Source of the DNA: Escherichia coli
GTDB lineage: Bacteria > Pseudomonadota > Gammaproteobacteria > Enterobacterales > Enterobacteriaceae
Strand: one strand, 5' to 3'
NCBI RefSeq assembly: GCF_050920415.1
Contig: NZ_CP169309.1
DNA length: 64,000 nucleotides
Positions 8,201-50,978 of this stretch are shown here, piece after piece. The notes under the pieces are model-generated. The model ran no database searches, was not told the origin of the DNA, and was given only the letters and a program-made list of their open reading frames with translations. The position numbers and the translations under genes were made by a program. Position 1 is the stretch's first letter. Each line of letters opens with the position of its first letter.

Positions 8201-8344
8201 TTCCGGCAGCGCCGAAACGGGCAGGGCACGATAACCGATAATCCCGGCGAGTAAGATCGCCACCATCAGCAGCGTGGTGGCGACAGGACGCATAATAAAC
8301 AGGCGCGACGGGCCGCCTGTGCTGCTCGGGGGTAACACCTGCAT
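5222..8344 (-). CDS. mdtB: RND multidrug efflux pump subunit MdtB
   Basis: 1040-aa ORF paralogous to the mdtC product; stop/start overlap with mdtA. Confidence 0.95.
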
Positions 8345-9591
8345 CAGGAGCGTGCTCCTTTTTTCACGTATTCGCGGCTGGTGGCTTTCTCTTCCGAAGT
8401 GGTGGCGCTTTGAGCTTCAACCACTTCCACTTTCGCCCCTTCGGTCAGACGATCAATGCCATCCGTCACTACGCGGTCGCCTGCAGAAATACCTGCGCGG
8501 ATCACCACTTTCTGACTGTCCTGAATGCCCGGCGTCACCAGATGTTTGCTGACTTTGTTTTCGCTATTCAGCACCCAGACAAAATGGCCTTCGTTGCCCA
8601 TTTGCAGGGCGGCGGTGGGGATCACCACGGCGTTTTGTTCGGTGTCGACTAACATGCGAGCGTTAACAAACTGATTGGGAAACAGCGCATCATCCTGATT
8701 ATTAAAGCGTGCTTTCACTTTAATCGTACCGGTAGTGGCATCGATTTGGTTATCGAGACTTAACAGCGTGCCTTCACTTAATTTCTTCGAGTTGGTGCGA
8801 TCCCAGGCTTCAACAACCAGCGGTTTTCCGGCTTTTTGCGCCTGTACTACGGTAGTGATATCGCTTTCCGGCAGGGTAAAGAGCAAATCGATAGGATGCG
8901 TCTGGGTGATCACCACAATCCCGGTGGTATCACCACTGGAGATTTGGTTACCAACATCAACCTGCTTGAGACCAACGCGACCATCGACTGGTGCGGTGAT
9001 GCGGCTCCAGTCGAGTTGCAGCTGCGCACTGGCGACGCTCGCTTCATCAGCCTTAATGGTACCTTCGGTTTCACTGACCAGCGCCTGTTGGGCATCCAAT
9101 TCCTGACGGGAGACGAGATTGGTTTTTGCCAGTTGCTGATAACGCGCTAAATCACGGCGGGCGTTGGCTAGCGTGGCTTTATCTTTTGCCAGTTGCCCCT
9201 GAGCTTGTGCTAATGCAACTTTGAACTGGCTGGGGTCAATTTCTGCCAGTAAATCGCCTGCTTTGACCTGCTGACCCTCCTGGAAATGTAATGCCATCAG
9301 TTGACCATCTACGCGACTGCGCACCGTAACGGTGTTAGCAGCGGTAATCGTACCAAGCCCGGTGAGGTAACGCGGAACCGCCTGTTCCACGGCAGTTGCT
9401 GCCTGAACCGGGGCCAATGGGCCGGAACGCATACCACGGCGGCCACCGGCTGGCGACTGCTGTGCTTGCTTCGTCGCACCTGGCGCTGCGCTCTGGGATT
9501 CATTGCGGCCTTGCCAGAACCAGAAAGCGGCGATGGCGGCGATAACCACCACGATTACGATTACCCAACGGGATTTATAACTGCCTTTCAT
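8344..9591 (-). CDS. mdtA: Membrane fusion (periplasmic adaptor) protein MdtA
   Basis: ORF track gives a 464-aa frame; the likely start is the internal ATG at complement(9589..9591), giving [26 protein letters not shown]... (415 aa) with an N-terminal anchor helix. Confidence 0.88.
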
Positions 9592-9644
9592 CGTTAAGAG
9601 TTTCTCTTCCTGAAACGTTTCGCGGAATGATACTAGTGTAGCCA

Positions 9645-9662
9645 GCCAATAAGGGAGAAAAA
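9645..9662 (-). promoter_or_regulatory. Candidate BaeR response-regulator box in the mdtA promoter
   Basis: Minus strand reads TTTTTCTCCCTTATTGGC, a 17/18 match to my recalled BaeR consensus TTTTTCTCCATDATTGGC; ~55-70 nt upstream of the mdtA start. Confidence 0.45.
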
Positions 9663-9814
9663 TGGAGGAATTATGAAACACTGTCGGGAATCGTCTGAAT
9701 GACGGGCACTTTTGCGAGCACGCATCCAGTAATAACACAGGAAACTATTTTATCTACGCGTTAGCGATAGACTGCATTAAGGGCAAAAGGAGGTAGGCCG
9801 ACGATTTCAGCGGG

Positions 9815-9975
9815 ACGCTGAAACGGGAAAGCCCCTCCCGAGGAAGGGGCCTTAAATAAGGAAAGGGTCATGATGAAGTGGATCATCATCGTGGTGCTCT
9901 TAGTCGTTAGCTACCCAGCTTACTAAGACTACCAGGGCGGGGGAAACCCCGCTCTACCCTCACTCCTGAAAGTAT
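9815..9975 (-). ncRNA. Sib-family antisense sRNA (antitoxin), copy 1; boundaries approximate
   Basis: Inferred from the known Sib/Ibs geometry (sRNA fully overlaps the toxin ORF on the opposite strand); minus-strand hairpin GCCCCUUCC-UCG-GGAGGGGC followed by a U-containing tract near 9820-9845 could be its terminator. Confidence 0.4.
9870..9926 (+). CDS. Ibs-family type I toxin, copy 1 (18 aa: MMKWIIIVVLLVVSYPAY)
   Basis: ATG ATG AAG ... TAC TAA read directly; preceded by aaggaaagg Shine-Dalgarno; not in ORF track (below size cutoff). Resembles E. coli IbsA/IbsB peptides. Confidence 0.6.
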   Translation: MMKWIIIVVLLVVSYPAY

Positions 9976-10142
9976 GCCTTCACAATCAGATTGTCAATCC
10001 GCAGGCTTTGTAGTCTGCGATCCTGCCAGCAAATATTCTTTGCGAGACGTTACGCAATAATCACAGATGAAACTATTTTATCTACGCGTTAGCGATAGAC
10101 TGCATTCAGGGCAAAAGGAGGTAGGCCGCCGATTTCAGCGGG

Positions 10143-10303
10143 ACGCTGAAACGGGAAAGCCCCTCCCGAGGAAGGGGCCTTAAATAAGGAAAGGGTCATG
10201 ATGAAGATACTCATCATCGTGGTGCTCTTAGTCATTAGCTTACCGGCTTACTAAGACTACCAGGGCGGGGGAAACCCCGCTCTACCCTCACTCCTGAAAG
10301 TAT
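10143..10303 (-). ncRNA. Sib-family antisense sRNA, copy 2; boundaries approximate
   Basis: By position relative to Ibs copy 2, same repeat unit. Confidence 0.4.
10198..10254 (+). CDS. Ibs-family type I toxin, copy 2 (18 aa: MMKILIIVVLLVISLPAY)
   Basis: Same architecture as copy 1, 328 bp downstream. Confidence 0.6.
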   Translation: MMKILIIVVLLVISLPAY

Positions 10304-10470
10304 GCCTTCACAATCAGATTGTCAATCCGCAGGCTTTGTAGTCTGCGATCCTGCCAGCAAATATTCTTTGCGAGACGTTACGCAATAATCACATGTGAAA
10401 CTATTTTATCTGCAAGTTAGCGATAGACTGCTTGCATGGCGAAAGGAGGTAGGCCGCCGATTTCAGCGGG

Positions 10471-10631
10471 ACGCTGAAACGGGAAAGCCCCTCCCGAGGA
10501 AGGGGCCTTAAATAAGGAAAGGGTCATGATGAAGCTACTCATCATCGTGGTGCTCTTAGTTATTAGCTGGCCAGCTTACTAAGACTACCAGGGCGGGGGA
10601 AACCCCGCTCTACCCTCACTCCTGAAGTTAT
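10471..10631 (-). ncRNA. Sib-family antisense sRNA, copy 3; boundaries approximate
   Basis: By position relative to Ibs copy 3; the 5' flank of this unit is divergent so the sRNA may be altered. Confidence 0.3.
10526..10582 (+). CDS. Ibs-family type I toxin, copy 3 (18 aa: MMKLLIIVVLLVISWPAY)
   Basis: Same architecture; the distal part of this repeat unit diverges after the ORF. Confidence 0.55.
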   Translation: MMKLLIIVVLLVISWPAY

Positions 10632-10799
10632 GTTACTCCACCCTTATTGTCAATCTGTAAGTCCACGTTCTTGCGGGGCGAATAGCAAAACCCTCTGCGC
10701 TTATGGGCCGAATTCTGAAAGTTGCTTTGCCTGCTCTTATTTCATTATTGCAGTCGGTATGATACCGGACCTCAATAATTCTCTAAGAAAGGATTTCTT

Positions 10800-11459
10800 A
10801 TGAGCGAACAAATCACGTTTGCCACCAGCGATTTTGCCAGTAACCCGGAACCACGTTGCCCCTGCATTTTGCTGTTGGATGTTTCTGGTTCGATGAGTGG
10901 TAGACCTATTAATGAACTTAACGCCGGATTGGTTACCTTTCGCGATGAGCTGCTTGCCGATTCGCTGGCCTTAAAAAGAGTGGAACTCGGTATTGTGACG
11001 TTCGGCCCGGTGCATGTGGAACAACCATTTACCAGCGCCGCTAATTTTTTCCCGCCCATCCTGTTTGCCCAGGGCGATACACCAATGGGGGCCGCCATTA
11101 CCAAAGCCCTGAATATGGTTGAGGAGCGCAAACGTGAGTATCGCGCCAATGGTATTTCCTATTATCGTCCGTGGATTTTCCTGATTACCGATGGCGCACC
11201 AACCGATGAGTGGCAGGCTGCTGCCAACAAGGTGTTTCAGGGGGAAGAAGATAAGAAGTTTGCCTTCTTTTCCATCGGTGTTCAGGGGGCGGATATGAAG
11301 ACGCTGGCCCAAATCAGCGTTCGTCAGCCTTTGCCTCTTCAAGGATTACAATTCCGCGAACTGTTTAGCTGGTTATCCAGTTCGCTGCGTTCGGTTTCCC
11401 GCTCCACGCCGGGAATGGAAGTTGTACTGGAAGCGCCAAAAGGCTGGACGTCAGTGTGA
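10800..11459 (+). CDS. yegL: von Willebrand factor A (vWA) domain protein YegL
   Basis: 219 aa; MIDAS-like motif DVSGSMSG near the N-terminus and ITDGAPTD later. Confidence 0.85.
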
Positions 11460-26655: not shown

Positions 26656-26694
26656 CAGTGTATTGGTAGCTAAAAAGCCAGGGGCGGTAGCGTG
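26656..26694 (+). promoter_or_regulatory. JUMPstart element with ops (GGCGGTAGCGTG) in the wza leader; RfaH recruitment site
   Basis: cagtgtattggtagctaaaaagccaggggcggtagcgtg; ops at 26683..26694. Confidence 0.75.
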
Positions 26695-41237: not shown

Positions 41238-41338
41238 TAGTTGAATAATCAACCGGAATAAATCTCCGGTAAATAATGACAAAAACAAAATTGGCCGTTT
41301 CGGTCAGGGCCAACTATTGCCTGAAAAAGGGTAACGAT

Positions 41339-50939: not shown

Positions 50940-50978
50940 CAGTACTCTGGTAGCTGTAAAGCCAGGGGCGGTAGCGTG
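50940..50978 (+). promoter_or_regulatory. JUMPstart element with ops (GGCGGTAGCGTG) upstream of the O-antigen operon
   Basis: cagtactctggtagctgtaaagccaggggcggtagcgtg; ops at 50967..50978; ~75 bp upstream of rmlB. Confidence 0.75.

Follow-up and report, generated by a model that had tools for sequence, protein, structure and literature searches.

The stretch of E. coli DNA analysed here (contig NZ_CP169309.1, 64,000 nucleotides; hereafter the window) very probably carries three neighbouring Ibs/Sib type I toxin-antitoxin modules, all apparently intact, which belong to an array between mdtA and yegL that is polymorphic across E. coli. We base this reading on sequence, homology, intact signals and distribution in the population, and infer from these the transcription, toxicity and cognate repression of the modules. 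The family, its mechanism, its presence at mdtA-yegL and its variable copy number are already known.

Tandem ibs/sib array between mdtA and yegL

The array consists of three tandem 328-bp units (9711-10666, with no single strand assigned to the array as a whole) in the intergenic region between mdtA (8344-9591, minus strand) and yegL (10800-11459, plus strand). A repeat search found a 300-nt unit three times, starting at 9711, 10039 and 10367 with spacings of 328 and 328 bp, the other two units being 93% and 84% identical to copy 1 over the 300 nt, and TRF reported a repeat at 9730-10626 with a period of 328, 2.7 copies, 95% matches and a score of 1612. Such an array is far beyond chance. The initial annotation had read these repeats of about 328 bp as ibs/sib type I toxin-antitoxin loci, and the three Rfam SIB_RNA matches, the open reading frames and the alignment with K-12 sibB agree with it.

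On the plus strand, each unit carries an 18-aa hydrophobic ORF preceded by a Shine-Dalgarno (SD) sequence, as originally described, and the peptides match those given then exactly. Copy 1 (9870-9926) encodes MMKWIIIVVLLVVSYPAY (WP_100733666.1), which is identical to K-12 IbsB at 14 of 18 residues; copy 2 (10198-10254) encodes MMKILIIVVLLVISLPAY (WP_100733667.1; 16 of 18); and copy 3 (10526-10582) encodes MMKLLIIVVLLVISWPAY (WP_100249772.1; 17 of 18), a protein that is also encoded in strains MP1, 2013C-4282 and M160133. The peptides thus share 14-17 of 18 residues with K-12 IbsB and differ from it in their loop-patch alleles (codons 4-5 and 13-16). All three ORFs are preceded by AAGGAAAGGGTC, and the SD of copy 1, AAGGAAAGGG, lies at 9858-9867 on the plus strand. 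The features typical of Ibs are all present: a hydrophobic core, an MMK... start, a ...S.PAY end, an SD, and a position on the strand opposite to a Sib RNA. The peptides are shorter than 20 aa, and their assignment to the Ibs toxins is by direct alignment and by PGAP name. K-12 IbsB is itself annotated only as a 'putative toxic peptide'. The ibs genes read toward yegL and away from mdtA, an arrangement that is the same in 10 strains. A search by eye for an ibs promoter gave the candidate TAGACT (9768-9773), whose -35 is weak.

The window shares 100% identity with E. coli MFDS1022581 (NZ_CP169399.1), and in that record PGAP names all three ORFs 'type I toxin-antitoxin system Ibs family toxin'. 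The toxin ORFs had been described as hidden; RefSeq already holds all three for exactly these letters, and to that extent finding them here is of little importance.

On the minus strand, a scan of the whole window with the Rfam model RF00113 (SIB_RNA) gave three full-length matches (model positions 1-147) at 9855-9997, 10183-10325 and 10511-10653, scoring 138.3-139.9 bits (E about 1e-28) where the gathering score is 56. Because the model covers the promoter from the -35 box (UUGACA) onward but leaves out the terminator, the Rfam coordinates are not transcript ends. Each match extends about 36 nt beyond the mapped Sib 5' end on the promoter side and misses about 31 nt of the 3' end; at the K-12 locus, the SIB_RNA match covers 1276-1424 and the annotated sibA 1312-1455. 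We instead placed the Sib ends by alignment with the annotated K-12 sibA, sibB and sibC RNAs. Between the Sib bodies and K-12 sibB the alignment is base for base, from the 5' end GAGGGTAGAGCGGGG through the terminator, and it gives predicted 136-nt transcripts, all on the minus strand, at 9826-9961 (Sib-1), 10154-10289 (Sib-2) and 10482-10617 (Sib-3), which the Rfam matches and the folds support. By these coordinates each predicted transcript spans its ibs ORF and SD entirely. The Rfam matches and the K-12 alignment therefore uphold the earlier proposal that an antisense sRNA gene on the minus strand fully overlaps each ORF.

The three Sib RNAs are predicted to fold into one common architecture, with a closing stem P1, P2, P5, P6, a single-stranded J1/7 and a terminator. 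The predicted fold of Sib-1 has an energy of -61 kcal/mol (z = -4.7), Sib-2 and Sib-3 each have z = -4.4, and at energies of about -60 kcal/mol none of 200 shuffles folds as well.

Each Sib is preceded by a candidate promoter on the minus strand. That of Sib-1, read from the sequence, is TTGACA, a 17-nt spacer and TACTTT (9969-9997), with +1 seven nt downstream; that of Sib-2 has the same elements (10297-10325) and is supported by conservation across strains; and that of Sib-3 is TTGACA, a 17-nt spacer and TAACTT (10625-10653), homologous to the K-12 sibA promoter. Every internal unit of the 10 strains compared has the TTGACA-17-TACTTT arrangement, and the Sib promoters as a whole are conserved across 30/30 units of these ten strains. 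The predicted terminator, an 11-bp GC-rich hairpin followed by UUUCC, is conserved in the 30 units as well; for Sib-1, the fold places its hairpin at 9830-9853 (minus strand). A generic scan for consensus promoters and terminators, whose threshold was 4/6 in the -10 hexamer, called neither the promoters nor the terminators of the Sibs, since the -10 hexamers agree with the consensus at 3/6 positions only and the U-tract is short. These signals were placed instead by homology to the annotated K-12 ends and by conservation across strains.

The window modules share much with K-12 ibsB/sibB (QUAD1b, ryeD), including the locus and the orientation relative to mdtA. K-12 sibB, like the window Sibs, is 136 nt long, its 5' and 3' ends are identical to theirs, and it has the same TTGACA-17-TACTTT promoter as the internal units; the number of IbsB-like units at the locus differs, being three in the window and one in K-12. 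At the yegL-proximal end K-12 has ibsA/sibA (QUAD1a, ryeC). Copy 3 occupies the same terminal position in the window and has a homologous promoter and flank, whereas the K-12 IbsA-type unit (19 aa, MMKHVIILVILLVISFQAY) is absent; copy 3 has an IbsB-like body, which is also the case in B2 strains.

By analogy with the work on K-12 SibC/ibsC, from which the mechanism of repression is taken, the plus strand of each unit would encode a hydrophobic, IbsB-like membrane peptide of 18 aa acting as a toxin, and the minus-strand promoter (TTGACA, 17-nt spacer, TACTTT or TAACTT) would be expected to drive the 136-nt Sib constitutively, giving an abundant antisense RNA that would normally keep the toxin from being made. 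The predicted Sib is perfectly complementary to the ribosome-binding site and ORF of its own ibs. Pairing would begin at the loops, with the P5 loop serving as TRD1 and the single-stranded J1/7 as TRD2, assisted by the P6 loop; the ibs mRNA would then no longer be translated and would decay. In the published system, Ibs overexpression is described as lethal through envelope damage, the cognate Sib represses ibs and promotes decay of its mRNA (PMC2943612), and the P6 loop is needed for TRD2 function (Han et al. 2010, PMC2943612). For Salmonella IbsA, inhibition of ATP synthase at its Fo sector has been reported (bioRxiv 10.1101/2025.05.26.656083).

Several other elements were seen in the window. 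A 22-nt imperfect palindrome was found by the repeat search at 9599-9634. Upstream of mdtA, at about 9646-9663, the minus strand reads TTTTTCTCCCTTATTGGC, which resembles the BaeR-box consensus. Rfam also reported two JUMPstart elements (26656-26694 and 50940-50978, plus strand) and an algC RNA motif (41285-41334, plus strand), which fit with gene clusters for polysaccharides (colanic acid, O-antigen) lying downstream in the window.

Copy number of the array in E. coli

We took 60 records at even steps down a ranking of 5,425 matching complete-genome records and counted the annotated ibs genes at mdtA-yegL. Three were annotated in 26 records, two in 24 and four or more in 6, the remaining 4 having one copy or a partial match only; a sample of 40 rows agreed with this. 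Judged by these samples, three is the commonest copy number among complete E. coli genomes. The arrays at this locus range from one to five copies, all with the same period: one copy in strain 639, two in K-12 (IbsB and IbsA) and in B2 strains (two IbsB-like), three in MA11, four in TUM1880 and MP1, and five in E20. The E20 array lies at 1211-2583 of the E20 locus, and two adjacent units of its five encode WP_100792650.1. Ibs numbers were already known to depend on the strain, with for example seven in O157:H7 Sakai (Fozo et al. 2010, PMC2887945).

The arrays of MA11, TUM1880, MP1 and E20 have the 328-bp period, the flanks and the pool of loop-patch alleles in common with the window, and differ from it in how the alleles are combined. 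The arrangement of the window, with three copies and no ibsA, is rarer, being found in nine complete genomes at at least 97.8% identity over the array; it is built from the same parts as the other arrays. Among its carriers, 2013C-4282 and M160133 are 97.8-98.7% identical to the window over the array and combine the patches differently.

The initial annotation stated that K-12 holds two copies at this position, and sibA/ibsA and sibB/ibsB are indeed found there. It went on to suggest that the third copy reflects expansion of the locus, a proposal that the population data do not support. In its full form, two copies would be ancestral and the third would have been gained by a recent, lineage-specific unequal crossover, making the window an unusual expansion. 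K-12 and the B2 strains do carry two copies, and unequal recombination clearly acts at the locus, as the two adjacent E20 units with the same protein illustrate, but the modal count of three leaves nothing unusual about the copy number of the window. A recent duplicate is rejected on the sequences of the units as well. The TRD1 alleles VSYP, at position 1, and ISWP, at position 3, stand at the same positions in the four-copy array of MP1, so these units are old and not fresh duplicates, and copies 1 and 2 differ at 8/57 ORF positions. We consider a recent expansion quite unlikely.

The K-12 array itself points the other way. Its ibsB unit looks like a chimera: the flank on the mdtA side corresponds to that of position 1 in four-copy arrays, and the ORF with its downstream flank to those of position 3 (units 1 and 3 of TUM1880). 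This structure suggests that K-12 is a contracted form; the two-copy state of K-12 may plausibly be a deletion derivative of a longer array. On our main reading, unequal recombination between the 328-bp units changes the copy number at the locus.

Predicted promoter and flank of the terminal unit

From 10627, a point inside the -10 hexamer, copy 3 no longer follows copies 1 and 2, and the divergent distal flank noted earlier for this copy is real. The accompanying suggestion that its antitoxin may be altered does not hold for the RNA, as the predicted 136-nt transcript differs from the others only in the recognition loops. The point of divergence lies 10 nt upstream of the predicted Sib-3 +1 (10617), so the Sib-3 transcript should be unaffected and of full length, and all of it falls within the stretch of unit 3 that is conserved.

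Past the last unit, the sequence is homologous in every strain examined, including at K-12 sibA (TTGACA-17-TAATTT) and in the B2 strain Ecol_244, and the terminal Sib promoter of copy 3 is identical in 2013C-4282 and M160133. In the core elements, the Sib-3 promoter differs from its homologues at one -10 base only (TAACTT against TAATTT). By these comparisons, what appeared to be a divergent flank is the conserved, predicted Sib promoter of the array end, not a lesion.

Were copy 3 crippled, its Sib would be altered or poorly expressed because of this flank, and ibs-3 would be left unrepressed or repressed in trans only. The -10 TAACTT does carry one substitution relative to the TAATTT of K-12 sibA and the B2 terminal unit, with TACTTT in the internal copies, and upstream of the -35 box the sequence is unrelated to that of the internal units. 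However, the divergence lies upstream of +1 and the full-length transcript is predicted to fold like Sib-1 and Sib-2; the consensus -35 TTGACA and the 17-nt spacer are kept, as are the key bases of the -10 (T, A and the final T); and 2013C-4282 and M160133 share both the promoter and the Ibs protein. Selection would moreover act against a chromosomal toxin that lacks its antitoxin, and Sib-1 and Sib-2, which have an identical TRD2, could back up Sib-3. A crippled copy 3 therefore seems very unlikely to us, and the useful outcome for both this copy and the copy number is a negative one: there is no expansion worth pursuing, and the copy 3 antitoxin does not appear compromised.

The older 'QUAD' view, that the repeats are non-functional intergenic DNA with coincidental small ORFs, has in its favour that the ORFs are very short and is extremely improbable, as are decaying repeats in general, because the ORF, SD, promoter and terminator are intact in 30/30 units of 10 strains, variation is limited to the recognition loops and 4 codons and never disrupts the frame, and the family has been characterised experimentally for toxicity and Sib repression (PMC2943612), with Salmonella IbsA reported to act on ATP synthase (bioRxiv 10.1101/2025.05.26.656083).

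Sequence variation in the recognition loops

Within the 136-nt Sib bodies, the three copies vary at nine positions only: +45, 48, 49, 56 and 57 in the apical part of P5, and +80-83 in the P6 loop. On the ibs strand, these sites fall in codons 13-16 and 4-5, respectively. In SibC numbering, the first patch lies in TRD1 (+46 to +68, with its target inside the ORF) and the second is the P6 loop, so that the variable sites of the window coincide with TRD1 and with the TRD2-assisting P6 loop of the SibC/ibsC model (Han et al. 2010, PMC2943612). The predicted fold leaves eight of the nine unpaired, compared with 44 of 136 positions overall (hypergeometric P = 5e-4). This is the fairer of two loop tests; the other, nine sites in 23 loop positions, gives P = 2e-8 for a region chosen post hoc and is descriptive only. 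Differences between copies are clustered in the ORF relative to the rest of the unit for copies 1 and 2 (P = 8e-4) and marginally for copies 1 and 3 (0.046), and clustering is not significant by this comparison for copies 2 and 3 (0.15); further differences of copy 3 lie upstream of -84.

The TIR/TRD2 segment, TTAAATAAGGAAAGGGTC, is identical in the three copies (9852-9869, 10180-10197 and 10508-10525), whereas TRD2/TIR has been described as varying among K-12 SibA-E. In the window, a Sib and a non-cognate ibs remain complementary over an unbroken 53 nt, which runs from Sib +84 to the 3' end. For K-12 SibB-E, strict one-to-one cognate pairing has been described; given the shared TRD2/TIR and the 53 nt of non-cognate complementarity, such pairing may not hold here. 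Partial cross-repression among the three modules is possible, because the published model lets either TRD suffice. Discrimination between modules, if any, would have to come from the P5 and P6 loops alone.

The two patches behave differently when strains are compared. Writing the P6 patch (codons 4-5) before the TRD1 allele, the window reads WI+VSYP, IL+ISLP and LL+ISWP; 2013C-4282 reads IL+VSYP, WI+ISLP and LL+ISWP; M160133 reads WI+VSYP, LL+ISLP and LL+ISWP; and MP1 reads IL+VSYP, WI+ISFP and LL+ISWP, followed by IbsA. The TRD1 alleles stay in position, and it is the 6-nt P6 patch that moves. Compared with 2013C-4282, its nearest relative, the window has the P6 patches of copies 1 and 2 (9879-9884 and 10207-10212) exactly exchanged, and copy 2 of M160133 has the P6 patch of copy 3. 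These patterns suggest that short gene-conversion tracts between neighbouring units best explain the movement, and loop patches would be carried from copy to copy in this way. Since a Sib and its ibs are encoded on opposite strands of one DNA segment, every chimera stays self-complementary.

A further reading, which we put forward tentatively and think somewhat doubtful, is that the array acts as a combinatorial 'specificity barcode', in which P5/TRD1 and P6 alleles would be shuffled independently by gene conversion while the rest, including TRD2, stays constant, and in which the modules may be cross-protecting. If this were true, neighbouring modules may be only partly insulated from one another and cross-protect, and the array would depart from the picture of one Sib for one ibs that was derived from K-12.

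In itself the shuffling of loop patches is a minor evolutionary curiosity. The reassortment also provides a natural data set on how far the sequences of paralogous cis-antisense pairs must differ for the pairs to stay insulated.
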